From assembly GCA_965116845.1 (NCBI GenBank), contig OZ220728.1:3970309-4034308 (forward strand): a stretch of 64,000 bases of DNA, read 5' to 3'. This stretch comes from Vicinamibacterales bacterium (GTDB lineage: Bacteria; Acidobacteriota; Vicinamibacteria; Vicinamibacterales; UBA8438). The notes beneath the pieces were generated by a model. It searched no databases. It saw only the letters and a list, made by a program, of their open reading frames with translations, and had not been told where the DNA came from. Positions 6,080-62,391 of this stretch are shown here, one piece after another. The position numbers were made by a program, and so were the translations under genes. Numbering within the stretch: position 1 is the stretch's first letter; the number at the start of each line of letters is the position of its first letter.

Positions 6080-6108
6080 CCGCCGTCTCCTTGCCTTGTG
6101 TCCGTTCC

Positions 6109-8449: not shown

Positions 8450-9031
8450 CTACTCGACCACCTGCACGCGGGTCTCGGCGACCGCCCACGACGAGGCCGG
8501 CATCTGGGCCGTCGCCCGGTTGAGCCCGCGCAGGAACGTCCCTGCCGTCGACGCCAGGACCATCGGTCGCGTCAGCGTGCTCCCCTGGTTGTCGGCGAAG
8601 CCCACGAACGGCTGCCGCGTCACCAGGAACACCACCCGGTCGACCCCCGCCGGCAGCGACGCCCGGATCACGAGGCCGTCGCCCGCACGCGGATACTCCA
8701 CCTGTGCCCCGGCCGCCACCGGCAGGTTCTCCGCCAGCAGCGTCACCCCGCCGTCCGCGTTGACCAGGTAGAGGTGCCCGAAGCCCGCCTCGCTCGACGA
8801 CACCCGGAAGCCGATCGGCGTCCCCACCGCCACCGGCGGCGCCATCGTCGGCGTGACGCCCACCGCGAACGCCGGGGAGTCGTTCGCCGCCACGTCCACC
8901 CCGCCCGCCCCCACCAGCACGCCGTTCCCCGTCGACCGGCAGCCGGCGGCCGCCACCAGAACCAACGCCGATGCCGCCGCCAGCACGCTGGCCCGGGAGG
9001 TCCCGAACCGCGCCACTCCGTATCCGGTCAT
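8450..9031 (-). CDS. DUF4384-like lipoprotein
   Basis: ATG 9031 overlaps the kinase stop (ATGA); lipobox LVAAAGC; FRVSSSEAGFGHLYLVNADGGVTLLAENLP DUF4384-like core. Confidence 0.7.
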   Translation of the reverse strand: MTGYGVARFGTSRASVLAAASALVLVAAAGCRSTGNGVLVGAGGVDVAANDSPAFAVGVTPTMAPPVAVGTPIGFRVSSSEAGFGHLYLVNADGGVTLLAENLPVAAGAQVEYPRAGDGLVIRASLPAGVDRVVFLVTRQPFVGFADNQGSTLTRPMVLASTAGTFLRGLNRATAQMPASSWAVAETRVQVVE

Positions 9032-11892
9032 TGCTCCGCTCCCCCCGTCTTCCCTTCGGCCCTTGTCCACGCACTGACCGAGGCCGTTGCCGCTGTAGAC
9101 GCCGCGGACCCCGAAACCGGACGCGGATCGATGGTCTCCCCCGCGTGCGCCGCCGATGGGTTCGGGTGGAGCGACAGGGGCGCCGGCGGCAGCGAGTCGG
9201 GGACGAGCGTGCGGACGGCCGCCGCCAACGCGCCCGCCGTCGTCGGCCGGGCGGCGGGCGGCGCGGCCAGCATCTCGCCGGCGAACGACAACACCGCCTC
9301 GACGGCGTCCGCGTCGGCCGCGCCCGAGCGGGCGGCCGGCCGCGTCCGCAGCCGCTGGTTGCGGATGGCGTCGACCATCTCCTCGACCGTCGCGCCCGCG
9401 AACGGGCGCCGGCCCGCCACCGTCTCGTACAGCACCACGCCCAGCGCCCACACGTCGTCCGCCGCCCCCGCCGGCCGCCCGCCGAGCGCCTCCGGCGACA
9501 GGTACGCCACCGTGCCCCCGCCCAACGGCCGGCCGCCCCCGCTGATGTCCGCCAGCCCGAAGTCGAGCAGCTTCGGCGTCCCGCGCGACGTGAACCCGAT
9601 GTTGCTCGGCTTCACGTCCCCGTGCCGGTACCCCGCCGCGTGCAGCGCGTCGAGCGCCTCGGCCACCGCCGTCACCACCCACACCGCCGCCCCCGGCGCC
9701 AGGGGCTCGCCCCCCAGGCGCGCCGCCAGCGTGCCCCCGTCGAGGTGCTCCATCACCAGCAGCGGCCGCCCCCGCCACGTCTCGAGGCTGTGGATCTGGG
9801 CGACCCCCGGGTGCGCCGACGCCGCCATCGCCTGCGCTTCCCGCCGCAACTGCGCCAGGCCCGCCGCCGACACGCCGTCCAGCGTCTTGATCGCCACCAC
9901 CCGGTCCAGCCCGATGTCCCGCGCCCGGTACACCGTCCCCATCCCGCCCGCGCCGATGCGCCGCTCCACCGCCAGCTTGCCCGCCACCAGCACCGGAAGC
10001 GGCGCCTCCGCCCACTCGCCTCCGCACGCGTCGCACCGGGCGCCCGCGTCGACCGCCGACGCGACCCGCCCGCACGCCCCGCACGCCCGGGCCGGCGGAG
10101 CCTCCCCGGTCGACCCGGGCTGCCGCAGCCGCGCGAGCGTCAGGCTCGCCGCCCCCGCCAGCGCCTCCAGGAACGACACGTCCACCGGCCGCAGCCGGGC
10201 GCCGTCCGCCCGGCGACCCACCACCAGGAGGCCGGACAGCGTTGCCCCGGACCCGGCAACCGGCACGACCTGCGCCGCCCCCGTCGCCGTCACCCACGCC
10301 GCCTCGCCCGGCGGCAGCAGCTCGAACGCCGTCTGCCGGCCCTCCGGATCGACCAGGAGCGAGCTGCGGATCTCGGCCAGGACGCCGGCCAGCAGCGATG
10401 CGCGCGGCAGGGGAGCGAGCGTCCCGCCGGGCGCCGCGAACCGCTCCTCGGACGCGTCGAGCGCCGCCAGCATCCCGGCCGGCACCCCGGCGCCCTGCCG
10501 CGCCGCGCGCGCGACCGCCGCCTCGACCTCCGCCGCCTCGGTCGCCTGCCCGAGTTCGCCGCCCGCCGCCGCCAGCGCCCGCCGCTGGTCCGCCGTCTCC
10601 GGCGCCACCCACCCGTCCAGGCTCGCGAGCAGACGCTCCCGCCACGCCAGCGCCACCAGCGCCGCGGCCGCGGCCCCCACGCAACCCTGCGACAGCGGGT
10701 CCGCGAGCACCGCGCGCACCGGCACGTCCGCGCGACTCACCAGCAGCGCCGCCAGCGCCGCCAGCGGCCCCGCCGTCAGCACCGCCAGGCCGCCCCGCGT
10801 CAGCAGCCGTCGCGCCGACACCCGCACCGTCGTCCGCACGTCCAGCACCCGCAGCGCGATCGCCGCATACAGCGTCAGGTACGGGACCGCCAGCGCCGAC
10901 ACGCTCCCCAGCACACTCACCCAGTTCGCCGCGGCCACCGTGACCGTCCCCGGGGAGAACACCTCGACCACCCCTTCGACGTGCGGCGCCAGCGCCGCCG
11001 CAATCCCGCCCACGAACAGCAGTGTCCGCGAACGGTCCTCGCGCGCCACGCCCCCGACGCGCAGCAGCAGGACGGCCAGTCCGGCCAGGAGGAAGAGGCA
11101 GTGCGGGCCGAAGAACGCCGGCGCGATGTAGGCGCCCGGAACCTCCCGCGCCAGCACGCCCAGCGATGGGCTCAGCGCCTGCACCGGCGCCAGGTTCGCC
11201 ACCTGCAGCACGCCGCCCACCCCGGCCGCCAGCAGCGCCATGCGCGTCGCCCAGGCGTCGAGCCGCGTCCCCCGCCGGACCCGCGGGAACTCCCGCACGA
11301 ACAGCCAGAAGACGGCCGGCAGGAAGAGCTCCGGGTAGAGGCCCACGCCGAGACCGCCCGCAACCGGCTGCGCCCAGAACGCGCCGAGCAGCACCAGCAC
11401 CGCCCCCAGCAGCCGCGACCGGCGGTCGAACCGGCCGCCCACGTACAGCACCAGCCCGCACACCGGATACAGAACGTGGGGGACGATGCGCAGCAGGAGC
11501 GCCGCCGGCGACAGGTCCTCCACCGGCAGGAAGCCCCGCGCCGACTCGTCCGGGCCCGCCAGCGCGGCCAGCATCCCCTCGGCCGCCGCCGGCAGCAGCG
11601 CCGCTCCCGTGAACAGCCCGACCGCCGACTCGAGCAGGCCGATGGCGACCAGCACCCCGACCGCGCGCCGCGCGAGCCGCGACTCCCGGCCGTCGCGCCC
11701 GGCCCGTCGGCTCGATGCCACCGCCGCCCCCGCGGTGCGGCAGATCCCCTCCAGCGTGCGGAGCTGCGCCAGCGCGCCCCGCTCGGCAGGGTGGGCGCGC
11801 GACGTGCACCGCTCCCAGTCCACCTCCTGGCCGGCGGCGACCGCATCCGCCACCTCCGGCAACAGCCCGCGTCCCCGCGTCTCGCGACTCAC
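9028..11892 (-). CDS. Polytopic membrane Ser/Thr protein kinase (N-terminal multi-TM region, GAF-like middle region, Cys-rich ribbon, C-terminal kinase)
   Basis: GTG 11892 after GGAGGAG; kinase blocks IGAGGMGTVYRA, VVAIKTL, HGDVKPSNIGF (non-RD), LLDFGLA, YLSPE; Cys cluster CGACGRV..ARCDACG before the kinase; about 8-10 hydrophobic segments; paralog at 59626..62391. Confidence 0.88.
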   Translation of the reverse strand: MSRETRGRGLLPEVADAVAAGQEVDWERCTSRAHPAERGALAQLRTLEGICRTAGAAVASSRRAGRDGRESRLARRAVGVLVAIGLLESAVGLFTGAALLPAAAEGMLAALAGPDESARGFLPVEDLSPAALLLRIVPHVLYPVCGLVLYVGGRFDRRSRLLGAVLVLLGAFWAQPVAGGLGVGLYPELFLPAVFWLFVREFPRVRRGTRLDAWATRMALLAAGVGGVLQVANLAPVQALSPSLGVLAREVPGAYIAPAFFGPHCLFLLAGLAVLLLRVGGVAREDRSRTLLFVGGIAAALAPHVEGVVEVFSPGTVTVAAANWVSVLGSVSALAVPYLTLYAAIALRVLDVRTTVRVSARRLLTRGGLAVLTAGPLAALAALLVSRADVPVRAVLADPLSQGCVGAAAAALVALAWRERLLASLDGWVAPETADQRRALAAAGGELGQATEAAEVEAAVARAARQGAGVPAGMLAALDASEERFAAPGGTLAPLPRASLLAGVLAEIRSSLLVDPEGRQTAFELLPPGEAAWVTATGAAQVVPVAGSGATLSGLLVVGRRADGARLRPVDVSFLEALAGAASLTLARLRQPGSTGEAPPARACGACGRVASAVDAGARCDACGGEWAEAPLPVLVAGKLAVERRIGAGGMGTVYRARDIGLDRVVAIKTLDGVSAAGLAQLRREAQAMAASAHPGVAQIHSLETWRGRPLLVMEHLDGGTLAARLGGEPLAPGAAVWVVTAVAEALDALHAAGYRHGDVKPSNIGFTSRGTPKLLDFGLADISGGGRPLGGGTVAYLSPEALGGRPAGAADDVWALGVVLYETVAGRRPFAGATVEEMVDAIRNQRLRTRPAARSGAADADAVEAVLSFAGEMLAAPPAARPTTAGALAAAVRTLVPDSLPPAPLSLHPNPSAAHAGETIDPRPVSGSAASTAATASVSAWTRAEGKTGGAEQ

Positions 11893-11992
11893 CGTCTCCT
11901 CCTGCCTCGGGTGCCCGCACGCCCCATTGCCGGGAGAAGACGTCTGCCCGCGCCGAACCGGACACGGGGCGCCGGCACCGTGCCGACCTCGC

Positions 11993-27991: not shown

Positions 27992-28927
27992 CTATCGGAC
28001 GGTCAATTCTCTGCTGCCTCGCGGATATCGCTCGACGAACCGCTGGTATATGTCCTTTGGCGACGAACGGTGTGACCAACGTCCCTTATCGAGATCGGAA
28101 TCCGACGATGTTCCCTCCGGGTTCAAGACGATCTGCAAGAAGGGTCCGTCCCACTCTTCGTGGTCACGCCAGTCGCGATAGTCCTTCGTATAGCCAAAGG
28201 CCCGATGTGTGCGGTGTGCTCCCAGCGGCCATTGCCTCCAACCAGCTGTCTGAAGTGCATCCTCCGAGACTCCGTCTAGCATTAGATGCAGCCGCCACCC
28301 ATCAACTCGCGCAGTCGTGCCGGTCAATCCGTGAAAATGGGTGGTCTTCGGTTCGGCCAGCAGGCCCTCGACCGTGGTCACATGGAAGATCACGGGTTGG
28401 CCCATAAGGTCTGTGTGCTCCAGGACATGCGTAATCATGTGGAACGTCGCTTTTGCGACTTTCGAAAGGGTGCGGTCCCAACAAGCTTTGGAGGAGGCCG
28501 TGCTGGAACACTGAGGGAGTGTCCGCAACAGACGCTGTTGGGCGGGAGTTAAAGCCGAATAGGAGGGTGTTGTCACGTAGCTAATGTGATTGCGAACCCG
28601 TGTGCGGAAAGCCAGGCGCCGCTGGAGCTGGCGGCGCAGACGGGAGTTGGGTTGGGCTCGAAGCGCCCGTACCGAGGCTGACTCGCAACCGGCGCGAAAA
28701 GACAGCGAAACCGTCGATGAGTTCGGACAGAGGCCCGCAGTCATACGCGGCCGGCCGAATCTCCCGCTGGAAACGGATGGCGGAGGAGACGGGCCGCGCA
28801 CTTCTCCAAGAGCCGGCTCGATAGGCGGCGGCGACGGCGCGGCGAGCGACGGCCGAGCAGAAGCGCACCCGATGGCTAGTATGACGGCGACCAGAGTCGG
28901 TGCAAGGGCGGATCGTGGATCGTGCAT
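27992..28927 (-). CDS. Hypothetical lipoprotein
   Basis: ATG 28927; lipobox VAVILAIGCAS; 21-nt gap to the next gene; the long track ORF 27992..29638 fuses it artefactually to a caspase fragment. Confidence 0.5.
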   Translation of the reverse strand: MHDPRSALAPTLVAVILAIGCASARPSLAAPSPPPIEPALGEVRGPSPPPSVSSGRFGRPRMTAGLCPNSSTVSLSFRAGCESASVRALRAQPNSRLRRQLQRRLAFRTRVRNHISYVTTPSYSALTPAQQRLLRTLPQCSSTASSKACWDRTLSKVAKATFHMITHVLEHTDLMGQPVIFHVTTVEGLLAEPKTTHFHGLTGTTARVDGWRLHLMLDGVSEDALQTAGWRQWPLGAHRTHRAFGYTKDYRDWRDHEEWDGPFLQIVLNPEGTSSDSDLDKGRWSHRSSPKDIYQRFVERYPRGSRELTVR

Positions 28928-28989
28928 AGCCCAACATATACCATGACTGGTTCCCACGCCATAGCAGGCACCAAAACACCAGGATTTTC

Positions 28990-29338
28990 TGGGTCTTCTG
29001 GAGTCGACCAGGTTCGGCGGTCGGAGAACCGGGCCCTGCGGCAACAAGGCGACGACCGGCTGATGAAGACGCGCTACCTGTGGCTGACGCGTCGCGGGAA
29101 CATGACGCAGCGGCAACGCCGGGCGTTCACGCCGCTGCGCCGGAGCTCGTCGCGCGTGGCGCGGGCGTGGGCGTGGGCGATCAAGGAACTGGCGACGCGA
29201 CTGTGGGACTACCGCTCCCGGGGCTGGGCGGTCCGGATGTGGCGGCGCTGGTACGGGTGGGCGATTCGCAGTCGCCTGGAGCCGATCAAGAAGGTCGCGC
29301 GGATGATCAAGCGCCACTGGGACGGAGTGATCGAGGCC
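28990..29338 (+). pseudogene. ISL3-family transposase C-terminal fragment
   Basis: VDQVRRSENRAL...TRYLWLTRRGNMTQRQRRAFTPL...VARAWAWAIKELATRLWDY...WRRWYGWAIRSRLEPIKKVARMIKRHWDGVIEAV; ends abruptly against the caspase fragment. Confidence 0.6.
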
Positions 29339-29638
29339 GTGCCCCGCGTAGAAGACCAGCGCCACGTCGGCCCCCGCGCTGCGCCTCGTGAACGTGCGCA
29401 GGGCCTGGTTCAGCTCCGTCAGCCCCGCGTCGAGGCTCGTCGTCACGTCGAAGCCGAGACGGCGGAGCGCCGCCGTGACGGCGGCCGCGTCGTTCGCCGG
29501 GTTCGGCAGCCGCCCGATGTGGGCGTACGTGCTGTTACCGACGACAAGCGCCACCCGGCCGTCGGCCAGCGCGACCGAGGCCCACGCAACCAGAACGACC
29601 GACAGCAGCAGGACGACGCCGAGCCTCACGGGCCGCAT
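29339..29638 (-). pseudogene. Caspase-domain gene, N-terminal fragment only
   Basis: MRPVRLGVVLLLSVVLVAWASVALADGRVALVVGNSTYAHIGRLPNPANDAAAVTAALRRLGFDVTT...ADVALVFYAGHG, then replaced by ISL3 sequence. Confidence 0.75.
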
Positions 29639-29842
29639 CTCTTCGCCTCCACTCCCCTCTTGCAGGACCGCCTTCAGCCCCCACCCTCGCCACGGGTCTG
29701 GGCCGGCGTCCGCGCCAGCAATATCGGCGGCGTTCCCGTCGTTGTCAAGGGTGCTGCCGGGCGGTGGATCGGCTCTCTACTACCAATCTGGTTGCGGATA
29801 GCAGAAGGCGTCTCCGTAGACAAGCGGACGCAGCCTCACATG

Positions 29843-29858
29843 ACTACCAGTTGGTAGT
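29843..29858. promoter_or_regulatory. Palindrome ACTACCA-GT-TGGTAGT (copy 3)
   Basis: actaccagttggtagt; a half-site ctactaccaat lies upstream. Confidence 0.35.
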
Positions 29859-30677: not shown

Positions 30678-31420
30678 GAAGCTGCTCTGTCGGCGGCGCT
30701 GAGGCGAATCGGCTTCGAGGTAACAACGGAGCTCGACGCCGACCGCGGGGAGAGTTGACCGAAGCGCTCCGGGCGTTCACGCGCCAGAGCGCGGGAGCGG
30801 ACGTCTCTCTGGTCTTCTACGCGGGCCACGGCCTCGAGATTGACGGAATCAACTACCCTGGTGCCGGTCGACGCCCGCCTGGAGCGCGACGTCGACGTGC
30901 GCTACGAGACGGTGACGCTCGACGACCTGCTGGTGGCGACGGTGGGGGCGCGGCTGCGGCTGGTGATCCTGGACGCCTGCCGGAACAACCCCTCGCCCGG
31001 TCGATGCAGAGGGCGGTTGCGTCGCGGAGCATCAGCGGAGGGAGCTTCGGGCAGCTCGACGAGGACCTGCTGGGGGACGAGACGCTGGTGGCCTACGCGG
31101 CGGCCGCGGGGACGAGGGCGGCGGACGGGTCGGGGAGGAACAGCCCGTACACGTCGGCGCTCTTGGCGCACCTGGACGAGCCGCTGGAGATCCTGACGCT
31201 GTTCCGGCGCGTTCGGGCGCGGGTCCTGGAGGTGACGAACGGAGAGCAGCGCCCGCACGAGTACCAGTCGCTGCTGCGGGAGCACTACCTGAGCGGGGCG
31301 CCGGCGGTGGAAGCGGTGACGGTCGAGGCGGCGGCGCCCGACGTTGCCGACGTCGACGTCGGCGAGCTCGATGTCGCGCAGCTCCGCGTGCTGGCGGAGC
31401 GGGGCGACGCGGAAGCGCAC
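30678..31420 (+). pseudogene. Caspase-domain pseudogene (several frameshifts, FGE part lost)
   Basis: AALSAALRRIGFEVTTELDADRGE / LTEALRAFTRQSAGADVSLVFYAGHGLEIDGINY / LVPVDARLERDVDVRYETVTLDDLLVATVGARLRLVILDACRNNP / LARSMQRAV...RNSPYTSALLAHL...RPHEYQSLLREHYL, spread over three frames. Confidence 0.7.
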
Positions 31421-31424
31421 CGTG

Positions 31425-31992
31425 CGATACGTCAACGCCCCCCGCGCATCCACCGCGAACACGTGATGGCCCTTGTTGATTCGCGGCACCCTCCGCAAGA
31501 TGTCGAGCGCCGCCGCAGGGAGATGGTGCAACCGCCGTCCCGTCTTCGTATGCGGCAGGGTCACACGCCGGCTCTCAAAGTTGACATGCTCCCAACGAAT
31601 CGCGAGCACTTCCGAGATCCTCAGCCCCGTCAGCGCGGCTACCCTGATCGCCGCAACGCTCGCCGGGAACCGCTCGTCGAGTCGATCGAGCGCGGTCGCC
31701 AGCGCCGCCAATTCCGTCGAGTCGAGCACCCGGTCTCGGGGTTCCTCGCGGGCCCGTTCGATGCCTCGCACGGGGTTCGTGTGCTGCGGTCTCCACTCCC
31801 AGGTCTCGAACAGATTGAACAGGCGCGAGACGAACGCGAGCACGCGGTTCCGGGTCGCGTTCGGCAACGGCCGAACGGCCAACTCCACGTGCGGATGCCC
31901 AGGTTCTTGACCTGAGCATCCCACAGAAACCGGGTCTTCGACTCCGCTTTCGCGTCGCGGATCCGACGTTCCGACAGCACGCGGCCTCCCAA
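31425..31992 (-). pseudogene. Tyrosine integrase pseudogene (frameshifted, 3'-truncated)
   Basis: VLSERRIRDAKAESKTRFLWDAQVKNLGIR (arm-binding N-terminus) then RNRVLAFVSRLFNLFETWEWRPQHTNPVRGI...AIRVAALTGLRISEVLAIRWEHVNFESRRVTLPHTKTGRRLHHLPAAALDILR; abuts the caspase pseudogene. Confidence 0.65.
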
Positions 31993-32215: not shown

Positions 32216-32257
32216 TTCGTAATCAGCAGGTCAGCGGTTCGAGTCCGCTCGCCGGCT
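32216..32257 (+). other. 3' fragment of a tRNA-Thr(CGU)-like gene (anticodon loop to acceptor end); probable att remnant
   Basis: ttcgtaatcag c aggtc agcgg ttcgagt ccgct cgccggc t: T-arm, variable loop and 3' acceptor strand are readable, but no matching 5' acceptor strand or D-arm lies upstream. Confidence 0.55.
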
Positions 32258-32511
32258 TCAATAGAATCAATAGTTTACGGAGGTCCAGGGTTCAAACCGA
32301 TCCAACCCGTATCACCACTGTGTCACCACCAATTCGACGGTGGATCGGCCTCGCCACACCCACGCCGCGAGGGTGGACCAACTCAAGTGCACAGCCCGCG
32401 CACTCGACCCGAGGCCAGCCCGTCACCACCGCCCGGACAGATGCGGAACCGACCGGCGAAGTCCCGCCAGTCTGAAGGCGTACTATCGTGTGCGACAGGC
32501 GTGCGGGTCGC

Positions 32512-32901
32512 TCAGTCAGGCCTGCCTGTCTGCCGCGCGACCTCGTTGGCAAATGTGCGGGCGGAAGCCAGCCAAGCGCGCAGCTCGTCTGCGGTGGGGT
32601 TGAGTTCGTACGGGTGGTGATGGCAAGCCCGGCTCAGAGCCGACCAGGTCGCGGAAGCCCGTCGTGCCAGGTCGCGGTCGCCGAAGTAGATAACCAGGCA
32701 GAGCAGTTGCGCATGGCTGCTGCAACGTTCCAGCCCCGGTTCACGCAGGCGCCAGTACTGGCGCAACGCGCCCTCGATGGCCTGGCGTCCGAGCGCGGCG
32801 GCGGTTCTCGGCCAGAGTCCCGCGCCGCCGGTGGTCGAGCTCCTGATCAGCGCTTCTGCCGCGGAGAGGACCCGAAGCGGCGACATCGTGCCGGACGTCA
32901 T
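32512..32901 (-). CDS. Small helical protein translationally coupled to the ATPase (function unknown; contains RACHHH, an Rx4H-type motif)
   Basis: 129 aa; the ATG overlaps the ATPase stop (ATGA); no signal peptide. Confidence 0.6.
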   Translation of the reverse strand: MTSGTMSPLRVLSAAEALIRSSTTGGAGLWPRTAAALGRQAIEGALRQYWRLREPGLERCSSHAQLLCLVIYFGDRDLARRASATWSALSRACHHHPYELNPTADELRAWLASARTFANEVARQTGRPD

Positions 32902-35414
32902 TTCGACCTCGCCAGCGAAAGGATCGATCGGGTGACGCGGTCGGTCCGGTAGACGAGCTCCTTCAGTTGCGTCGGCGGAATGGGGTCATGGGAGCCGCGG
33001 TTGGACCAAGCGACGGCGTCGCCGGCTTCCCGGCCCCACTTCGCATTGATGTGCGGGAGGACGTCGCCGGCCCGCTCGACGTCGTCGAGGAGCGCCAGTG
33101 CCAGTTTTTGGAGCAACGTCCGGGCATCGGTCAGGGCTTCCTCGACCGCGGCGTGTGCCTCGCCGCGTCCGATGCGGCGCCGACGGACGACTTCGGTGGA
33201 CGCGGCTTCCAGTGAGAGACGGCAGTAGAGTGGCACAGCCCGCGCCGCCGCGGCGGGCGGCAGGTCACTCGTCAGGGTCAGCGACCGGGCGTCGTCCAGA
33301 TACTGCCCTGCCGGGTGGCGCGTTTCCCGGCATTCGACGACCGATTGGGCCCGTCGCGCCACTTCGATCACACGGGCCGGAATCTGCAGCCGCCGGATCG
33401 ATTCCGGCAGCCGTTCATCGTGTGTGAAGACGAGGACCTGCCTGGTTCGTGCCGCCATGTGGAGCACGCGGGCCAGGCCGTCCACCTTGCCAGGGTCCAT
33501 TGCCTGCACCGGATCGTCGATGACGACGAAGCCGAAGGGTGATTCGGGCAGCAGCACGCGCGGCAGAAAGAGACTGAGTGCCAGGGCGTGGATTTCGCCC
33601 TGGCTCATGACACCGAGGGCTTGGCCGGCAACGCCGTCGACGCTGACTCCGAGGGCGAGTCGGCGTTGCGTGGAGCCGCCGGCAAGCTCGAGATCGTCCA
33701 GGGCAACCGCGCTGTTCTGCCGCAGCAGTACCCAGACATCCCGCGCCCGGTCGGCAATTGGCTTGAAGCGTTCGGCGCGAACCGCGCCGGTTTCGTCGAG
33801 GAGCCATTTCTCGGCCTTCCGGAGCTTGGGAGCGACTCGGCGGGCGAGTGCGGCCTGCTTCGCTTCGGGCAGCCACTCGCGGAGCGAGCGCGCGATCGGG
33901 CGCCAAGCATCTTCTCTTCGCCTGAGTTCGGCAGCAGCTTGTTCGTGCAAGGTTGCCGCAGCGTCGTTCAGGCTGGCGTGGGAATGGCGCAAGTGCTCGA
34001 CGAGAGCCTCGTCCGGGACATTGGCTGGAAGGCTCGTCCAGTGTGACCAGGCCGTCGTCAGATCGGCCGCATCGATACCGACCTCTTCTGCGCGCCGCAA
34101 CTCCGGGGGTGGCTCGGTGAGCAAGGCCCGGGCCTTGTGCCGCGCTTCGTGCTGGACTTGCTGTGCCTGCATCGCGGCATGGGACTCTTGACGCAGGCGC
34201 TTGCTCTCTCCTTCGGTTCGCTCGCGCCAGTCGCCGTCGAGCGCACCGTCGCCGCAGACCGGACAGGGCTGATCGCCATGCGCTGCATGCAGGTCGAGTG
34301 ATTGTTGGAGCAGGTCGGCGATCTGTCCGGCGCGACCGGCGTCGGTCGCAGCCATATCCCGCGTCGTTTCGACCGCTGCCTGCAAGCGCCCGGCGGTCGC
34401 CAGCACGTCTTCAGCGCTTGAAATCGGCAGGGTCGCCAGCTTACCCAACAACGGAAGCCCGCCGTCGCCCTCGGGGTCGATCGCGCCCTCGATAACCAGT
34501 TCCAGGGCGTCGAGATCCCAGGCATCAGCTTTGGACGCCTCGATTGCCCGTGCACACGTCCGCGCCCGCTCGTCTTCGATTTCATCCAGTCGGGTCCGGT
34601 ATCCGCTGCAGTCCGACTCAACCGCCCTGAACTGCCTTTCCCGAGCGAGTCTCTGCTCGCGCAACCGCTTGTGCGCGTCGACCAGCGACTCGATGCCGAG
34701 CGCCGCCGACATCACGTCGAAGAGCACGGACGGCGGACTGTCAGCGATCGATCCCAGCTCGTTGTAGGGGAGGAATGGACGGTATGTCGACAGTGCGGCG
34801 TCCCAACCGAGCGCGGCGCGTCCGTCGCCACGGCGGACGCCGCGCACGGCCGTCGATGCCGCGTCCAGCTCGGTTTCTCCCGCGGGCCATGTGCAACGGG
34901 CGACCAACGGCTGGCGTTCGCCCTCGATGGCAAACGTCGCCTCGATCTCCACGGATTCCGCCAAGTGAAGATTGCGCCAGCCCTGCTTCCACACCGCCGA
35001 CCGCTCGGCCCAGCGGCGGTTCTCACCTGTCAGCAGAAACTCCAGCGCTTCGGCGAAGCTGGACTTGCCGCTTCCGTTACGCCCTACGACTAGCGTCAGT
35101 CCTGGCCCAGGCGCCAGATCGAGCGTGCTGCGGGAACCGATGCCGCGGAATCCCTGCACCGCGATCCTGTTCACGAAGACGCCGGTCGCCGGCCGATCTG
35201 TCGACTCGGTGACCTCGTCGACCGCGGTCGAGACCGATGCTGCGTGGCTTCCGTCTCTGGCCAGCGCCTGCATCAACGCCGCGGCGCCCTCGAGCGCTGC
35301 GATCACGAGCAGTCCGACGTCGACGGCGAGAGCCGTGTCGGCATCGATTCTTGCCCGCACCTGGTCGGTCAACGTCGTGCCGGTGGAATTCGGTGTCTGG
35401 TCGGGAGGTGTCAT
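32898..35414 (-). CDS. Rad50/SbcC/SMC-like ABC ATPase with a coiled-coil insert and CPVCG zinc-hook-like motif
   Basis: 838 aa; Walker A GRNGSGKSS, signature-like MSQGE, Walker B FVVIDDP, D-loop/H-loop region VLVFTHDE; long helical insert with QPCPVCGDG at its centre (nt 34251..34265). Confidence 0.85.
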   Translation of the reverse strand: MTPPDQTPNSTGTTLTDQVRARIDADTALAVDVGLLVIAALEGAAALMQALARDGSHAASVSTAVDEVTESTDRPATGVFVNRIAVQGFRGIGSRSTLDLAPGPGLTLVVGRNGSGKSSFAEALEFLLTGENRRWAERSAVWKQGWRNLHLAESVEIEATFAIEGERQPLVARCTWPAGETELDAASTAVRGVRRGDGRAALGWDAALSTYRPFLPYNELGSIADSPPSVLFDVMSAALGIESLVDAHKRLREQRLARERQFRAVESDCSGYRTRLDEIEDERARTCARAIEASKADAWDLDALELVIEGAIDPEGDGGLPLLGKLATLPISSAEDVLATAGRLQAAVETTRDMAATDAGRAGQIADLLQQSLDLHAAHGDQPCPVCGDGALDGDWRERTEGESKRLRQESHAAMQAQQVQHEARHKARALLTEPPPELRRAEEVGIDAADLTTAWSHWTSLPANVPDEALVEHLRHSHASLNDAAATLHEQAAAELRRREDAWRPIARSLREWLPEAKQAALARRVAPKLRKAEKWLLDETGAVRAERFKPIADRARDVWVLLRQNSAVALDDLELAGGSTQRRLALGVSVDGVAGQALGVMSQGEIHALALSLFLPRVLLPESPFGFVVIDDPVQAMDPGKVDGLARVLHMAARTRQVLVFTHDERLPESIRRLQIPARVIEVARRAQSVVECRETRHPAGQYLDDARSLTLTSDLPPAAAARAVPLYCRLSLEAASTEVVRRRRIGRGEAHAAVEEALTDARTLLQKLALALLDDVERAGDVLPHINAKWGREAGDAVAWSNRGSHDPIPPTQLKELVYRTDRVTRSILSLARSK

Positions 35415-35594
35415 GCACGCTCCGGGTGAGTGTTCGTGACCAGGGCGTCACGTGGTCTGTAGACGATATGGAATGACCGGCTCGCAATCGTACGGTCGTC
35501 GTGCGCGGGCACGCGACAAGGCGGCCGAGGCCGCCTACGATTCGCGGGTTGACACCAAACGCTGCGTCAGAGCCGCAGACGAAAGGAGCCGGTC

Positions 35595-36030
35595 ATGAGC
35601 GAGCCTATCACCTCCGTGGGAATCGATGTGCACAAGTGGAGTTGCACGTAGCGCTGTTGGCGCCGGATGCCGCCGCTCCCGACACCTGGAAGGTACAGAA
35701 CGAGGCTCGGGCGGTGGAGCAGCTGCGCCGAAAGCTGGAGAAGGCCGCACCGGGTCCGGTCGCCTGCTGTTACGAAGCCGGGCCGTGCGGCTATGCATCG
35801 CAGCGGCAGCTCGAACGGGGCAGGGTCCAGTGCCAAGTGATCGCGCCGGCGCTGGTGCCACGCAAGTCGGGGGAGCGGATCAAGACCGACCGGCGGGACG
35901 CGCGCAAGCTCGCGGAACTGCATCGGGCGGGGCTCTTGACCGCCGAGGGCTGCACTATCCGGGTCGACGCCGGCCGAGGAAGCGGTGCGCGACCTGTGCC
36001 GGGCTCGCGATGACGTCGGCGAGAGCGGCC
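35595..36030 (+). pseudogene. IS110-family transposase N-terminal fragment (frameshifted, truncated)
   Basis: MSEPITSVGIDVHK (GAAAGGAG RBS) then, in another frame, ELHVALLAPDAAAPDTWKVQNEARAVEQLRRKL...VIAPALVPRKSGERIKTDRRDARKLAELHRAGLLTA. Confidence 0.65.
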
Positions 36031-47468: not shown

Positions 47469-47542
47469 TGTCAGGCGACAGTGAAAACTGACCCCCTGGC
47501 GACACGAAAACTGACCCCCCTTGTCCAAGGAGGAGTCAGCGG

Positions 47543-48823
47543 ATGACGCGATGCGAAGATGTCGGCCCGTGGGCGGGGAGGCCACGGGCACAGACGATGA
47601 TGAAGTCCGACGAAGTGGAGGCGATGCTGCATCTGCACGCGCTCGGTTGGGGGTTGAAGCGGATCGCGCGGGAGTTCGGGTGCAGCAAGAACACGGTGCG
47701 GCGTTACGTGGCGGCCGAGGGCTGGATGGCGTATCAGCGGCGGGCCGGTGGCGGCAAGCTCGAGGACCAGGAGGGGTGGCTGCAGGAGCGCTTTCTGCGG
47801 CACCGGGGCAACGCGGAGGTGGTGCGCCAGGACCTGCTGCGGGAGCGGTCGATCGACGTGAGCCTGCGGACGGTGGAGCGAGCGGTCGCGCCATTCCGGC
47901 GGTTGCTGACGGCGGAGGCGCGGGCGACGGTGCGGTTCGAGACGCCGCCGGGACGACAGCTGCAGATCGATTTCGGTCAGGTGCGGGTGCCGATTTCGGA
48001 CGAGCGGGTGCGGGTGTACCTGTTCGTGGCGACGTTGGGCTATTCGCGGCGCTGCCACGTGGCGGCGTTCCGGCACGAGCGGCAGTCGTCGTGGTTCCGC
48101 GGCCTGGAGGGCGCGTTTCTGCACTTTGGCGGCGTGACGAAGGAGGTGCTGATCGACAACCCGCGGCCTTTGGTGCTCGACCACGACGCGGCCACCCGCG
48201 AGGTCGAGTTCAACGAGCGGTTCCTGGCGTTCGCCGCGTATTGGGGGTTCCGTCCGCGGGCCTGCGCGCCGTACCGGGCCCGGACGAAGGGGAAGGACGA
48301 GCGCGGTGTCGGCTATGTGAAGGGGAACGCCATTGCCGGCCATCGCTTCGAGAGCTGGGCGGGGATGGAGGCGCATCTGGCGTGGTGGCAGCGGGAGGTC
48401 GCGGACCGGCGGCGCCACGGCACGACCGGAGAAGTCCCGCTGCAGCGCTTCGCTCGGGAAGCGGAGTGCCTGCGCCCCTGTGCGGACCGGCCGCCGTTCG
48501 GCCAGTTACGGGACCTGATCCGGACGGTCCACGCCGACTGCGCGGTGGTCGTCGACACGAACGCGTACTCGGTGCCGTGGCGGCTGATCGGCGAACGCGT
48601 ACGGGTGGTCGTCAACGGCGGCCGGGTGCGCGTGCACCACGGGCCGGACGTCGTCGCGGAGCACGACGAGCACGCGGGGCGCCACGTGCGGGTCGTCGAC
48701 CGCGCTCACCTGGTCGGCGTCAACGGAGGCCCGCGCCCGGCCGAGGCGGAAGCGGCCCGGCCAACACCCGAGCTGCTGCGACCGCTCGACGAGTACGCGG
48801 CTGTCGCCGGGGGGCGTTTCTGA
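47543..48823 (+). CDS. istA: IS21 transposase IstA
   Basis: AAGGAGGAG RBS; HTH GLKRIAREFGCSKNTVRRY, DDE core QIDFGQ...YLFVATLGYSRR...VLIDNPR...YRARTKGKDERGV. Confidence 0.92.
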   Translation: MTRCEDVGPWAGRPRAQTMMKSDEVEAMLHLHALGWGLKRIAREFGCSKNTVRRYVAAEGWMAYQRRAGGGKLEDQEGWLQERFLRHRGNAEVVRQDLLRERSIDVSLRTVERAVAPFRRLLTAEARATVRFETPPGRQLQIDFGQVRVPISDERVRVYLFVATLGYSRRCHVAAFRHERQSSWFRGLEGAFLHFGGVTKEVLIDNPRPLVLDHDAATREVEFNERFLAFAAYWGFRPRACAPYRARTKGKDERGVGYVKGNAIAGHRFESWAGMEAHLAWWQREVADRRRHGTTGEVPLQRFAREAECLRPCADRPPFGQLRDLIRTVHADCAVVVDTNAYSVPWRLIGERVRVVVNGGRVRVHHGPDVVAEHDEHAGRHVRVVDRAHLVGVNGGPRPAEAEAARPTPELLRPLDEYAAVAGGRF

Positions 48824-49632
48824 TGGCCGGCGTGGACCATGACACGCTGGCCGGCTGGCTGACGCGGCTACAGCTGACCGCGATCCGCGACCAGCTCGAC
48901 AACCTGCTCGACGAGGCCGCGGAGCGGAAGCTGACGCTCCGCGAGTCGCTGGCGATGCTCGTCGAGCGGGAGGTGTCGCGCAAGAACGAGCGCCGCATCG
49001 AGATGGCGTTCAAGATCTCCCACTTCCCGATGGTCCGCGAGCTCGCCGACTTCGACTTCAAGGCGCAGCCGAGTGTCGACCGGCGCCAGGTACGGGAGCT
49101 GGCGACGTCGCGGTGGGTGGCACATGGCGATGCGCTTCTTGTCCTCGGGCCGCCCGGGGTCGGGAAATCGCATCTCGCGATCGCGCTCGGGCGCGAGGCG
49201 ATCCGGCAGAGCTACTCGGTGTTGTTCACGACAGCCCAGGCCCTGATGGCCGCGCTGGTCAAGGCGCACAGCGAGGGTCGGCTGGAAGACCGCCTGGCCT
49301 TCTACGCCAAGCCGAAGCTGCTCATCGTCGACGAGCTCGGCTACCTGCCCTTCGAGGCGCAGGCCGCGCACCTGTTCTTCCAGCTCGTCTCGCGGCGCTA
49401 CGAGCGCGGCAGCATCTTGATCACGTCGAACCGGTCGGTCGGCGAATGGGGCGAGGTGTTCGGCGACGCCGTGGTCGCCACCGCCATCCTCGACCGGCTG
49501 CTGCACCACAGCCACGTCCTGACGATCACCGGGGAGAGCTACCGGCTGCGAGAGAAGCGTCGCGCCGGCGCCCTCAAGATCCCGGCACCGAAGCCTCCGG
49601 CGCCGGAGACCCGCCCGCAGGCGTCGACATGA
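48823..49632 (+). CDS. istB: IS21 helper ATPase IstB
   Basis: The ATG overlaps the istA stop; Walker A GPPGVGKSH, Walker B LLIVDELGY, ITSNRSVGEW. Confidence 0.92.
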   Translation: MAGVDHDTLAGWLTRLQLTAIRDQLDNLLDEAAERKLTLRESLAMLVEREVSRKNERRIEMAFKISHFPMVRELADFDFKAQPSVDRRQVRELATSRWVAHGDALLVLGPPGVGKSHLAIALGREAIRQSYSVLFTTAQALMAALVKAHSEGRLEDRLAFYAKPKLLIVDELGYLPFEAQAAHLFFQLVSRRYERGSILITSNRSVGEWGEVFGDAVVATAILDRLLHHSHVLTITGESYRLREKRRAGALKIPAPKPPAPETRPQAST

Positions 49633-59625: not shown

Positions 59626-62391
59626 TCAGTGAGCGTGCTGCGGCATGGTGCGTCGAAGACGGTCCAGTTCGTCCCGCATCGCGTTCGCGCTTCCCGGTCG
59701 ACGCGCGATGCTCGATGACAGCGCGTCGCGGAGAAACGCGGCCAACCCGCTGGGGCACGTCGGTCGGTAATCGCGGATGTCGGGCACAGCGGCCCGTTCG
59801 ACGGCGGCCAGCACCGTCGCGGTGTCCCCCGCAGCGAACGGGTGACGGCCCGCAAGGGCTTCATACAGCACAAGGGCCAAGCCCCACAGGTCGAAGGACG
59901 GCTGCGGCACGGCGCCGGCCAGCGCTTCCGGTGCCAGATACAGAGGGGTGCCCACCAGTCGTTCGGCGACGGTCACTGTGGCGCCAGGGTCCGTCGACCG
60001 ATCTAGCGCTTCGCGCAAGCGCGCCGAGATTGGCTCCGTCCGGGGCCGGACGTCCGAGATCCGATCGAGCAAGGCCAGACCGAAATCGAGTAGCTTCGGC
60101 CGACGGTCGCTGGTGTATCCGATGTTGCTCGGCTTGACGTCGCGGTGGAGCACGCCCGCGCCGTGCACACGTTCGAGTACGTCCGCGAGCACGATCCCGA
60201 GGTCGATCGCCTCCTTGCACGACACCGGGCCCCGACGGATCCAGTCACGAAGCGTGCCCCCGTCCAGGTATTCGACAACCAGCATCGGCGCACCGCGCCA
60301 CTCCTCCGTGCCGTAGATGAGCGCCAAGTTCGGGTGTAACACCCTGGCCATTGTCCGGGCCTCCCGGTGCAGCCGAACAGCCGACTGGGACTGGAGCAAC
60401 GGCAGAGTCTTGATGGCCACCCTGCGATCGAGGACCATATCGACTGCGAGGTATACGACGCCCATGCCTCCTGCACCGAGGAGGCGCTCGAGTCGGAACT
60501 TGCCCTGGATCAACCGCGGGAGCGCGGCGACGACGGTGGTTGTTCCGCACGAGCATCGGCGCTTGTCCGGGCTCCAGACCAGCCCGCAGACTGGGCAGTG
60601 GACGGCCGGCTCGTCCCGCCAGTTCGGTTCCCGCTCGTTGCGACCGCGAAACGGACGAGCGCCCTCGGCACAATGGCCACTGAGCCGCCGATTCTCAAGC
60701 TGCATGGCTACCCGGCCGCAGGCCGCCGTCGTTAGGGCGAAGTGAGGCGCTGCATACGGCAGACCGCTTCTGTTGTCCCCGATAGCGACCACGCCCAATA
60801 ACGCCCCGGTGGAGCCGATAAGGGGAGACAACAGGTGGGCGCCGGTGTCCCGCAACCACTCCCGATCCGCGGGCAGGAGCAGCCTCTCAATGGACTCCAA
60901 GGCGCGAAAGTCGAGCGGCACATCGCCTCGCGTCGACCGGAGGATCTCGGCCAGGGTCGAATCTTGCCGAATCGGACCCGTCGTTCCTTCGACCGGAACC
61001 AGCTCGCTCCCGTCCTCGTTGACGATCAGGACCGCCACGGATGGCGCCCGCAACGTCCGGCTCAGCTCGACGGCGAGCGCCTCCGTCACGTCACGCAGGC
61101 CACCCGCCATCCGACAACGTTGCTCGAGCCGGGCAAGGGCCTGCGACTGGTCTAACGGCTCGACGAGAAACCACCGGTCGATCGCATGGAGCAGATGGTG
61201 CCGAAGCGTAAGGGTGACGAGTCCCAACGCTGAGAGCGCGAACGGCCCAACGGGTCGCGAACGTTGGAGGTACTGCGCGATGGTCAACTGCTGATTCGTG
61301 TAGATGTCGAACCCGACGTAGGCGACGGGCCCCAGGCTCACGGCCCATACCGCATGGCGTGCCAAGGCGTACTTCAGCGCCATCCGGATGAAGAACTGCA
61401 GGTCCATCACACGGTCCACTGCAACGGAGTAGGCGGTAACCGGCACGATAAGCGCGAGCGCCGCGTAGAGAACGATGCCGACATGGTGCTGCACCGAGAC
61501 GTCCGAGAGCGCGGGTACGAACGGCGTGGCAACCACTGCGAGGACAAAGGGCGTCAGCCCTGCCACAAACGCTCCGACGAACACCATGACGCGACGCCGA
61601 TTCTCGTACGACTCGAGTCGGACCTTCCAAAGGAGAAACGGTATGGCGGGAGCGGCGGTGGCGAACAGCAGGGGCCAATAGACGGATTTCGGGTTGTAGC
61701 GGTCGAGCAGCTCAAAAGGGTTCATCAACCGGGCCGGCATCGTCCAGTCGGTCCACGAGCCAATGACACCGGTCGTGAACAGAACCGCGCCAGCACCGAA
61801 CGAGGCGTTCACGAGGATTCGGGAGATTCGGGCCTCCTTCGGCTTCTGCCCGTCGACCGGAAACCTCTGGACGAAGCGCCACAGCATCAGCGCCAAGAAC
61901 GCCTCTGGTTGGAACGGACGAAGCGCCGCGGCCGTCGCGTCGTCGAAGCAGTTTCCGCCCGACGGCATCAGTGCCGTCACGAACGCCGACCCTATGGCAA
62001 GAAAGAGACCACCAAGCAGCGGTAGTCGACGGTCGCGCCCGCCGCCCGCCAACAACACCACGCCCCCGAAGCCGAATAGGAAAGCGTTGACTACGTTGGG
62101 CCACGCCGTCGGACAAAGCGCGGCGGGAGCATTCACGATTACCAGGGCAAGTCGAGCGATCGCAATACCGAGCACGACGGCCACAACGGCGTCCACCGCG
62201 CGGCTCCACCAACCGGGGACGGGCGATGCATCGAAGCGGCGACCCGCCCCAATGGCGGAAACGACCTTGAGTTGGTGGAGAAGGTCGGCGTCGCGGGTCT
62301 TCGCGGCCGCCCGCTCGACGTCGGGCCAGTCCACGGCCTCGCCGGCGGCAACGGCGTCAGCTACGGATTCGAGCAGCCTGCGATCGCTCAT
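59626..62391 (-). CDS. Polytopic membrane Ser/Thr protein kinase, second copy
   Basis: The ATG overlaps the sigma stop (ATGA); N-terminus MSDRRLLESVADAVAAGEAVDW as in kinase 1; multi-TM; GAF-like region; HCPVCG...RCSCG; LGAGGMGVVYLA, VAIKTL, HRDVKPSNIGY, LLDFGLA, YLAPE. Confidence 0.9.
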   Translation of the reverse strand: MSDRRLLESVADAVAAGEAVDWPDVERAAAKTRDADLLHQLKVVSAIGAGRRFDASPVPGWWSRAVDAVVAVVLGIAIARLALVIVNAPAALCPTAWPNVVNAFLFGFGGVVLLAGGGRDRRLPLLGGLFLAIGSAFVTALMPSGGNCFDDATAAALRPFQPEAFLALMLWRFVQRFPVDGQKPKEARISRILVNASFGAGAVLFTTGVIGSWTDWTMPARLMNPFELLDRYNPKSVYWPLLFATAAPAIPFLLWKVRLESYENRRRVMVFVGAFVAGLTPFVLAVVATPFVPALSDVSVQHHVGIVLYAALALIVPVTAYSVAVDRVMDLQFFIRMALKYALARHAVWAVSLGPVAYVGFDIYTNQQLTIAQYLQRSRPVGPFALSALGLVTLTLRHHLLHAIDRWFLVEPLDQSQALARLEQRCRMAGGLRDVTEALAVELSRTLRAPSVAVLIVNEDGSELVPVEGTTGPIRQDSTLAEILRSTRGDVPLDFRALESIERLLLPADREWLRDTGAHLLSPLIGSTGALLGVVAIGDNRSGLPYAAPHFALTTAACGRVAMQLENRRLSGHCAEGARPFRGRNEREPNWRDEPAVHCPVCGLVWSPDKRRCSCGTTTVVAALPRLIQGKFRLERLLGAGGMGVVYLAVDMVLDRRVAIKTLPLLQSQSAVRLHREARTMARVLHPNLALIYGTEEWRGAPMLVVEYLDGGTLRDWIRRGPVSCKEAIDLGIVLADVLERVHGAGVLHRDVKPSNIGYTSDRRPKLLDFGLALLDRISDVRPRTEPISARLREALDRSTDPGATVTVAERLVGTPLYLAPEALAGAVPQPSFDLWGLALVLYEALAGRHPFAAGDTATVLAAVERAAVPDIRDYRPTCPSGLAAFLRDALSSSIARRPGSANAMRDELDRLRRTMPQHAH

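Follow-up and report, generated by a model that had tools for sequence, protein, structure and literature searches.

A Mobile Two-Gene Cassette Pairing a Zinc-Hook ABC ATPase with a Probable Free-Standing Paralog of Its Own C-Terminal Domain

Introduction

What might a Rad50-like ATPase do in the constant company of a small helical protein? The locus that raises this question lies on the minus strand of a 64,000-nt stretch of contig OZ220728.1 from a Vicinamibacterales bacterium (hereafter the window, in whose own numbering its positions are given), where the gene for an 838-aa ATP-binding cassette (ABC) ATPase with a zinc hook runs into the gene for a 129-aa protein. The sensors of bacterial immunity are most commonly ABC and SMC-like ATPases, and an initial annotation had read the pair as a candidate defense module in which the ATPase acts through a separate, HEPN-like effector. 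That picture of a sensor plus a separate effector turns out to be incomplete, since the ATPase carries a C-terminal domain of its own, about 150 aa in length, that is probably paralogous to the small protein. The coupling of an ABC ATPase with a HEPN-type domain is already known as a kind of arrangement; what sets this family apart is the obligate, probably paralogous second gene. A search of the literature found no zinc-hook ABC-HEPN protein accompanied by a free-standing paralog of its own effector-like domain, the ABC ATPase classification of Krishnan et al. (2020) standing outside this comparison.

A Strictly Conserved and Mobile Pair

The distribution of the pair was surveyed with one genome per species across 185,579 species genomes, from which 80 loci were kept for analysis. 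The ATPase occurs in at least 518 of these species genomes, a sporadic presence of well under 1%, and the 80 loci are spread over Acidobacteriota, Actinomycetota (Streptomyces, Nocardia, Blastococcus, and Actinoplanes), Chloroflexota, Dormibacterota, Gemmatimonadota, and Spirochaetia. In 76 of the 80 loci, an HMM search placed the small gene as the next open reading frame (ORF) downstream and on the ATPase strand, so the two-gene module that had been proposed from a single genome is conserved across genomes. Of the four loci without it, three break off at a contig end and the fourth (L025) has a frameshifted, truncated ATPase. In the window, the ATPase stop and the small-gene start overlap as ATGA (minus-strand AAATGAC, 32897–32903), and a 4-nt start/stop overlap (ATGA, GTGA, or TTGA) recurs in 47 of 75 loci, with most of the others spaced at -23 to +7 nt. 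The identity matrices of the ATPase and the small protein correlate across the family (r = 0.85; Mantel 0/999), and the mean pairwise identity is equal for both proteins (0.43 vs 0.42). All-versus-all clustering of the flanking ORFs from the 80 loci revealed no third conserved gene, the largest cluster being one of 12 loci that reflects Dormibacterota synteny. The pair is a strictly conserved, translationally coupled, self-contained unit.

The cassette is also horizontally mobile. In a blastn comparison with its closest genome relative (locus L001, 89% identity), DNA homology is confined to 32483–35432, and the flanks are unrelated. Two Streptomyces plasmids carry the pair, and the RefSeq labels of the two proteins are “AAA family ATPase” and “hypothetical protein”. 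The databases hold more than 3000 relatives of the ATPase (∼815–840 aa), and the small-protein family comprises 1290 clusters at 50% identity, nearly all of them 110–150 aa long. The family is widespread over at least six phyla and yet uncovered by Pfam, NCBIfam, and PADLOC. No promoter or terminator consensus was found around the cassette in the window.

Irregular copies and gene calls were also encountered during the survey. L025 (3837–6385) is a decayed copy with no partner gene and a frameshifted, truncated ATPase. In L001 (6989–9962), the ATPase is split into two overlapping ORFs. Public gene calls for some loci from metagenome-assembled genomes (L086–L088) omit the small gene, which is nevertheless present (10390–10884 in L086; HMM E 2.6e-51).

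The ATPase and Its Zinc Hook

Translation of the window reproduces exactly the 838-aa ATPase, the motifs, and the coordinates that had first been reported, with a Walker A motif, an ABC signature, a Walker B motif, and an H-loop making up a split ABC head (Table 1). In an alignment of 114 full-length homologs, the Walker A residues G/N/G/G/K, the hook residues C384/P385/C387, MSQGE, D633/D634, and H665 are 100% conserved. The strings VIDDPVQAMD and THD are likewise invariant, and the remaining hook residue, G388, is kept in 103 of the 114. This invariance indicates that the ATPase and hook motifs are functional rather than chance strings, and the assignment of CPVCG as a zinc hook stands. The Pfam SMC_N match (aa 81–673) describes a split head of the SMC_N/RecF type, and sequence matches in the PDB are to Rad50 and SMC heads only, with Rad50 heads the best. 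By analogy with the architecture of Rad50 and RloC, the insert of ∼354 aa between the head lobes is presumed to fold as an antiparallel coiled coil. The Walker B motif has the form hhhhD-D, in which the position of the usual catalytic Glu of Rad50, SMC, and ABC proteins is taken by an Asp (D634) that is invariant in the 114 homologs. An invariant D-D in place of D-E suggests that the ATPase of the pair is a slow, switch-like enzyme. The first 55 aa of the protein form a helical-looking block without any family match, which is followed by a variable Ala/Pro-rich linker and then by the ABC head.

A zinc hook and a Rad50-like head would also be expected of a housekeeping SbcC or RecN ortholog, with the partner of the ATPase encoded elsewhere in the genome. 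The scores in NCBIfam are, however, far under the cut-offs (sbcc, 14.8 vs 478.5; rad50, 24.2 vs 453.75; recF, 32.2 vs 172), and housekeeping SbcC, Rad50, RecN, RecF, and SMC proteins were rejected as candidates. The ATPase is moreover extended by a C-terminal domain and accompanied by an obligate small partner, and it is found in too few species genomes, and partly on plasmids, for a housekeeping ortholog. This explanation is refuted, with next to no probability left to it, and the initial view that the protein is no housekeeping SbcC or RecN holds. The reported lack of an SbcD/Mre11-type partner was confirmed too: the window has no Mre11/SbcD gene beside the pair, and the 80 loci conserve none.

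Named defense systems were searched with PADLOC, Pfam, and NCBIfam in a scan that took in both proteins, the isolated C-terminal domain, and 44 ATPase and 115 small-protein family members. Only generic ABC-head matches were returned (mad3, LmuB, HEC-01A, PDC-S06, AriA, GajA, and PtuA), and the small protein matched no PADLOC or Pfam model. With PADLOC run on both proteins, the pair fits no named system, as had been stated. Lamassu, Wadjet, and the ABC three-component systems (ABC-3C) had been mentioned alongside the pair, but the nearest known architecture is RloC. The PADLOC models of LmuB, the SMC-like ATPase that Lamassu combines with a LmuA effector and with LmuC, do match the ATPase head (E 3e-15 to 1e-10), as a diverged member of Lamassu might, but these matches are limited to generic head segments (aa 78–140 and 598–689). 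In the 80 loci, the surroundings of the pair show no conservation of LmuA/LmuC, of JetA/B/D, or of an ABC-3C middle component or effector, and the C-terminal domain, like the small protein, matches no PADLOC or Pfam model. Wadjet (JetABCD), an operon of four genes with a kleisin (JetA), JetB, and a Toprim nuclease (JetD), was rejected because the cassette has two genes only and the best PADLOC matches do not include JetC. ABC-3C, in which a middle component and an effector with a dedicated C-terminal domain join the ABC ATPase, was rejected because there are again only two genes and the small protein is without a match in Pfam (newest models 2025). That the pair is a diverged member of any of these three systems is largely refuted and very improbable.

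Two Probable Copies of One Domain

The ATPase runs ∼150 residues past its H-loop (aa 690–838). Conserved positions in this C-terminal domain are D708, A709, C731-R732-x3-E736, R744-R746, G751, H754, D777, and N805-x-G807-x-H809, of which R732, E736, and H809 are present in 114 of 114 homologs. When a profile of the domain was compared with a profile of the small protein in hhalign, the two aligned with E 8.5e-6 and a probability of 83% over 116 columns. Repeats gave E 5.2e-5 and, with a 98-sequence profile, E 6.7e-5; across the comparisons the match spans 109–116 columns and is full length. The identical procedure applied to six controls (a reversal of the domain, three segments of coiled coil, the C-lobe of the head, and the N-terminus) gave E 0.017 to 0.26 over no more than 19 columns. 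The alignment pairs R732xxxE736 with R39xxxE43 and N-R-G-S-H809 with S-R-A-C-H94. On the strength of the full-length match and the aligned R-x3-E...H residues, the small protein is taken to be a probable free-standing, distant paralog of the ATPase C-terminal domain, which would amount to the small protein plus two insertions. Both the fused and the free copy keep the invariant R-x3-E...H constellation. The Glu-to-His spacing is x50 in the small protein (R39-x3-E43-x50-H94) and 72 in the fused domain, where the insertions account for the difference. Searches of PDB sequences with both profiles returned chance-level matches only.

The fold of this pair of domains was approached with AlphaFold2 (AF2) models. 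For the small protein an all-helical structure is predicted, as first described, with five helices and a pLDDT of 88.7. In Foldseek, its top 16 PDB matches are nearly all HEPN proteins, with probabilities of 0.96–1.0 and TM scores of 0.54–0.66. They include the sacsin HEPN domain, AF_0298, SsR10, ST0689, TM0613, and the HepT toxins 7bxo, 6m6w, and 5yep, while a Foldseek comparison with the BFVD viral structures gave nothing useful. The model thus points with moderate strength to a HEPN-like fold, an up-down bundle of four helices, for the small protein, and by its link of paralogy the fused domain may be HEPN-like as well; the latter is modeled with seven helices and a pLDDT of 94.5.

The residues that the family conserves are not those by which the HEPN hypothesis was first framed. 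All 76 diverse loci conserve R39, E43, and H94 of the small protein, whose best-conserved part is the block SxxCH-x-x-x-YE around H94. The window protein does contain the Rx4H motif of the initial annotation (R91-x4-H96), but over the 76 loci position 91 is occupied by R, N, G, S, D, E, K, or A, which ruled out Rx4H as the defining motif of the family. H95 and H96 also vary, and the invariant His is H94. The same pattern is seen in the fused domain, in which R806 is 60% conserved vs an invariant H809. The HEPN hypothesis therefore stands as regards the structural matches of the model and fails as regards the arginine of the proposed motif.

A separate feature of the small protein is a pair of cysteines, Cys68 and Cys93 (32698–32700 and 32623–32625), which are nearly invariant in most lineages. 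Both are lost jointly in the members from Nocardia, Actinoplanes, and Planosporangium (LALR...SRAAHHH; among loci L057–L080). Their joint loss suggests a contact between the two residues, whether as a disulfide, in a metal site, or through packing.

Proposed Mechanism and Alternatives

We favor, with a confidence that stops a little short of an even chance, the proposal that the locus is an autonomous, mobile two-gene conflict module with an RloC-like build and a composite hetero-HEPN RNase site. The heads and hook of an ATPase dimer would sense a DNA cue in the fashion of RloC, candidate cues being ends or breaks and phage or plasmid DNA. ATP binding or slow hydrolysis would rearrange the heads, and the C-terminal domain and the small subunit would thereby be repositioned to form a two-copy, asymmetric HEPN-type active site. 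A parallel for such asymmetry is Cas13, which employs two different HEPN domains. The composite site would then cleave tRNA or other RNA, with a halt of translation and either abortive infection or growth arrest as the outcome. For the pair we infer RNase activity, heterodimer formation, a DNA trigger, and a role in defense, the case for the last being circumstantial and drawn from sporadic and horizontal spread, carriage on plasmids, and some defense neighbors.

The paralogy of the two domains could instead serve to hold the ATPase in check. According to this alternative, the module is still RloC-like, and the small protein is an antitoxin-like decoy that caps the ATPase C-terminal domain as an inactive heterodimer; ATP and DNA would displace it and allow two ATPase C-terminal domains to pair into an active RNase. 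HEPN nucleases are generally dimeric and commonly restrained by partners, as in RnlA-RnlB and PrrC-EcoprrI (PMC3710099). Paralogy would offer a ready-made mimic of the interface, tight translational coupling is typical for the control of toxin–antitoxin (TA) stoichiometry, and RloC is active without any partner. However, all 76 loci keep R39, E43, and H94, putative catalytic residues that a pure decoy could do without, and antitoxins are usually faster-evolving or less ordered, whereas the two proteins here have diverged to the same extent. Since the polar triad is retained in each copy and the two have equal rates of evolution, the composite site is favored over the decoy, which we consider doubtful and yet the strongest of the competing explanations.

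Another possibility is that no nuclease is involved. The pair would then be a SMC/Rad50-like complex for DNA tethering or maintenance, in which both HEPN-like copies are non-catalytic adaptors or nucleic-acid binders, akin to non-catalytic HEPN or kleisin-type subunits, with a part in repair, recombination control, or the handling of plasmids and chromosomes. Some HEPN domains are indeed non-catalytic (PMC3710099). Rx4-6H is not conserved here, several loci sit among housekeeping genes that include one for a DNA glycosylase, the automatic GO term in RefSeq is “double-strand break repair”, and the family is absent from phages. This explanation is harder to square with sporadic spread across phyla, carriage on plasmids, and a cassette-sized homology block between unrelated flanks, or with a polar R/E/H set that is invariant in both copies. 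The equivalog scores for SbcC, Rad50, RecN, RecF, and SMC are also far under their cut-offs, and no nuclease or kleisin partner is conserved. We regard a non-nucleolytic complex of this kind as clearly unlikely.

Several results weigh against the proposal of a composite HEPN-type RNase and should be set beside it. The canonical Rx4-6H arginine of HEPN domains is not conserved in the family (76 loci), and no Pfam match to the curated HEPN sequence families was obtained among the 115 small-protein members. Foldseek E-values for the small protein are weak (0.03–0.4, none ≤0.001), and those for the C-terminal domain are above 1 even for its best geometric matches in the PDB, which are again HEPN proteins (1wol, TM 0.50/0.59; 2hsb; and Csm6). 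In favor of the proposal, the conserved R-x3-E...H constellation follows the catalytic triad of the anticodon nucleases (ACNases), reported as R320/E324/H356 in PrrC and R692/E696/H737 in RloC, with the general form Arg-X3-Glu-X36-52-His (PMC2610378). The x50 of the small protein falls within the range of 36–52; against the proposal, the 72 of the fused domain falls outside it. As for membership in RloC or PrrC by sequence, the Pfam AAA_13 match reaches only 22.8 bits vs a cut-off of 36 and is confined to the N-terminal P-loop. No PADLOC model, those for RloC and PrrC included, touches the C-terminal domain (aa 690–838) in the window protein and 44 homologs, and no Pfam family covers the domain in the 44 members scanned. 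The INPHARED phages and IMG/VR contain no family member. Finally, many neighborhoods consist of ordinary metabolic and housekeeping genes, so the enrichment of defense islands around the pair is only suggestive.

The family offers a natural experiment on whether a HEPN-type nuclease can be put together from two halves, one fused and one free, with an ATPase in control. It is abundant in Actinomycetota (Streptomyces and Nocardia), Acidobacteriota, Chloroflexota, and Dormibacterota, phyla whose defense repertoires are poorly charted. If active, it would give DefenseFinder and PADLOC a new defense or toxin family and possibly provide an RNase with a programmable trigger. The most far-reaching version of the proposal is that the pair represents an undescribed cross-phylum family of immune or toxin modules in which an asymmetric HEPN RNase, gated by DNA sensing through the hook and heads, is built by the ATPase out of its C-terminal domain and a paralog translated along with it; we put this forward tentatively and think it rather less likely than otherwise. 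Were the asymmetric RNase real, ABC-HEPN systems would gain a new kind of regulatory logic, with HEPN halves supplied in cis and in trans, and the family would make a tractable model of how a Rad50-type hook signals to an effector. To our knowledge, communication from a Rad50-type hook and head to an effector is known only from the biochemistry of RloC, which involves no partner proteins.

Layout and Genomic Context

The positions of the two genes, their domains and motifs, and the nearest mobile-element remnants are collected in Table 1.

Table 1. Features of the Two-Gene Cassette and of Its Immediate Surroundings in the Window
Feature	Positions	Strand	Description	Basis
Whole cassette as homology unit	32483..35432	-	Both genes, with 18 nt on the upstream and 29 nt on the downstream side	blastn against closest genome locus (L001)
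ATPase gene	32898..35414	-	838 aa; Rad50-like split ABC head, insert with zinc hook, C-terminal domain that may be HEPN-like	ORF listing; Pfam SMC_N, AAA_23, AAA_21
N-terminal conserved block	35250..35414	-	∼55 aa (ATPase aa 1–55), VRxRLDAD..L.V..GLLVLAALEG..AL	Alignment of 26 homologs
ABC head N-lobe	34710..35177	-	aa 80–235, including Walker A	Pfam; alignment; Rad50 PDB chains matching aa ∼94–270
Walker A	35058–35084	-	GRNGSGKSS	Translation
Insert between head lobes	33648..34709	-	∼354 aa, presumed antiparallel coiled coil	Pfam SMC_N match split around the stretch
Zinc hook	34251–34265	-	CPVCG, aa 384–388	Translation
ABC head C-lobe	33348..33647	-	aa 590–689; Walker B/D-loop FVVIDDPVQAMD from 33510–33530	Conservation; translation
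ABC signature	33594–33608	-	MSQGE	Translation
Walker B	33510–33530	-	FVVIDDP, aa 629–635	Translation
H-loop	33414–33428	-	FTHDE	Translation
ATPase C-terminal domain	32901..33347	-	aa 690–838, probable paralog of small protein; R732-x3-E736 at 33207–33221; H809 in NxGxH at 32988–33002; also H754	
Small-protein gene	32512..32901	-	129 aa, HEPN-like helical by its model, translationally coupled to ATPase	ORF listing
Small-protein R39-x3-E43	32773–32787	-	Conserved; H94 inside SRACHHHPYE at 32605–32634	
tRNA-Thr(CGU)-like 3' fragment	32216..32257	+	42 nt, 5' half missing; context, outside module	Read directly
Tyrosine-integrase remnant	31376..31992	-	P4-type, degraded, frameshifted; N-terminal part in other frame (ORF 31639–31992)	Pfam Phage_integrase, profile positions 2–124 of 172
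IS110-type transposase fragment	35501..36013	+		Pfam DEDD_Tnp_IS110, E 2.2e-5, 24.7 bits vs cut-off 29 (below)

In the window, the cassette sits at a decayed mobile-element junction made up of the integrase remnant, a tRNA fragment, and pieces of ISL3 and IS110. The island junction that had been annotated here is borne out by an integrase remnant that is partial and frameshifted; the IS110 fragment scores below its cut-off. The annotated tRNA remnant was not called by ARAGORN or by Rfam at gathering or E-value thresholds, but it can be read directly as the 3' part of a tRNA-Thr(CGU), with the anticodon loop TTCGTAA, the variable loop AGGTC, the T-arm AGCGG-TTCGAGT-CCGCT, and the acceptor strand CGCCGGC. 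The 25-nt string of its T-arm and acceptor occurs once in the window. Given that it adjoins the integrase remnant, the fragment is probably what is left of an old island attachment site.

Other contents of the window lie farther from the pair. A caspase-family (Peptidase_C14) gene looks broken and rearranged, with the N-terminal part of the domain at 27992–29638 (minus strand) and the C-terminal part at 30755–31915 (plus strand), and an ISL3 transposase fragment (28922–29857, plus strand) between the two. Further ORFs encode an IS21 IstB-type ATPase (47521–49632, plus strand), a 1069-aa Ser/Thr kinase (59626–62835, minus strand), a trypsin-like protease (5171–6625, minus strand), and a 1171-aa DUF4384 protein (8450–11965, minus strand) in a stretch of ∼80% G+C. 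Along with the pieces of ISL3 and IS110, this other content suggests a very plastic region that is rich in insertion sequences.

Across the sampled loci, the neighbors of the pair include genes for ResIII, GmrSD, BREX BrxL/BrxC, SF1 helicases, NB-ARC/TPR proteins, Nmad3, and VapBC. On plasmid pM92 of Streptomyces sp. M92 (L081, 74003–92186), the pair is flanked by a gene for a DUF6119 protein, a pair of genes for NB-ARC and TPR proteins (STAND-like), and genes for a AAA ATPase of 1185 aa and a Ser/Thr kinase. This neighborhood may be a cluster of conflict systems.

Comparison with Known Systems

With Rad50 and SbcC, the ATPase shares the split ABC head, the presumed coiled coil, and a CPxCG hook. 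It differs from the Rad50/SbcC-Mre11/SbcD complexes in its much shorter arms, its extra C-terminal domain, its small partner, and its sporadic distribution. Closer in length and layout is the PADLOC candidate PDC-S06, an untested, single-gene ABC ATPase of ∼850 aa. The PDC-S06 models match at profile positions ∼53–119 and ∼620–712 of ∼860, leaving a comparable C-terminal extension. As an identification, PDC-S06 was rejected, since its best match (E 1.3e-13) is to the head only (aa ∼59–125 and 598–689) and its C-terminal region is without a match to the C-terminal domain described here. Six Streptomyces systems that were named recently (Ceres, Geb, Veles, Prithvi, and Ukko, together with Oshun) do not match the pair to the extent of their descriptions.

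The small protein taken by itself is most like the HEPN toxins and their structural relatives (HepT/MntA, SO_3166, AF_0298, and the sacsin HEPN domain), which share its size of ∼130 aa and its helical bundle and provide its best structural matches. Unlike the HEPN-MNT (type VII) TA systems, however, the partner here is an ABC ATPase, and no gene for a minimal nucleotidyltransferase (MNT) antitoxin is conserved nearby in the 80 loci.

A combination of both kinds of domain is found in PrrC and in RloC, whose nuclease domains have been classed as HEPN, and further ABC-HEPN fusions are known (PMC3710099). PrrC and the fusions APECO1_4465 and ERFG_01251 (Anantharaman et al. 2013) resemble what is proposed for the module in that an ABC ATPase regulates a C-terminal HEPN-type RNase in a conflict system, but no profile match to them was obtained. 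In contrast to the module, PrrC has neither coiled coil nor hook, and its silencer is a linked type I restriction-modification (R-M) enzyme; no R-M linkage is conserved in the 80 loci. We know of no report of a stand-alone paralog of the HEPN domain in the families of PrrC, APECO1_4465, or ERFG_01251.

RloC, an ACNase that excises the wobble nucleotide, comes nearest. RloC proteins are 658–897 aa long and combine ABC ATPase motifs with a Rad50-like coiled coil that bears a CxxC zinc hook (PMC2610378, PMC3458546). Mutations of the zinc hook activate the nuclease of RloC, which a DNA-dependent ATPase also turns on (PMC2610378, PMC3458546). The likeness described here is with these published descriptions, and no Pfam or PADLOC model places the protein in the RloC family. 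At 838 aa, the ATPase belongs to the same size class, and it follows the same order of an N-lobe, a presumed coiled coil with a central CxxC hook, a C-lobe, and a helical C-terminal domain of ∼150 aa. The two also have in common an R-x3-E followed by a distant invariant His, a sporadic distribution driven by horizontal gene transfer that includes Actinobacteria, and the usual lack of a linked R-M system or nuclease partner. The Walker B motif is D-D in the module and D-E in RloC. The module is thus RloC-like in architecture without demonstrable membership in the RloC family, and the clearest mark that distinguishes it is genetic: RloC acts as a single protein, whereas the ATPase described here is accompanied by a second, obligate gene for what is probably a free paralog of its own C-terminal domain.

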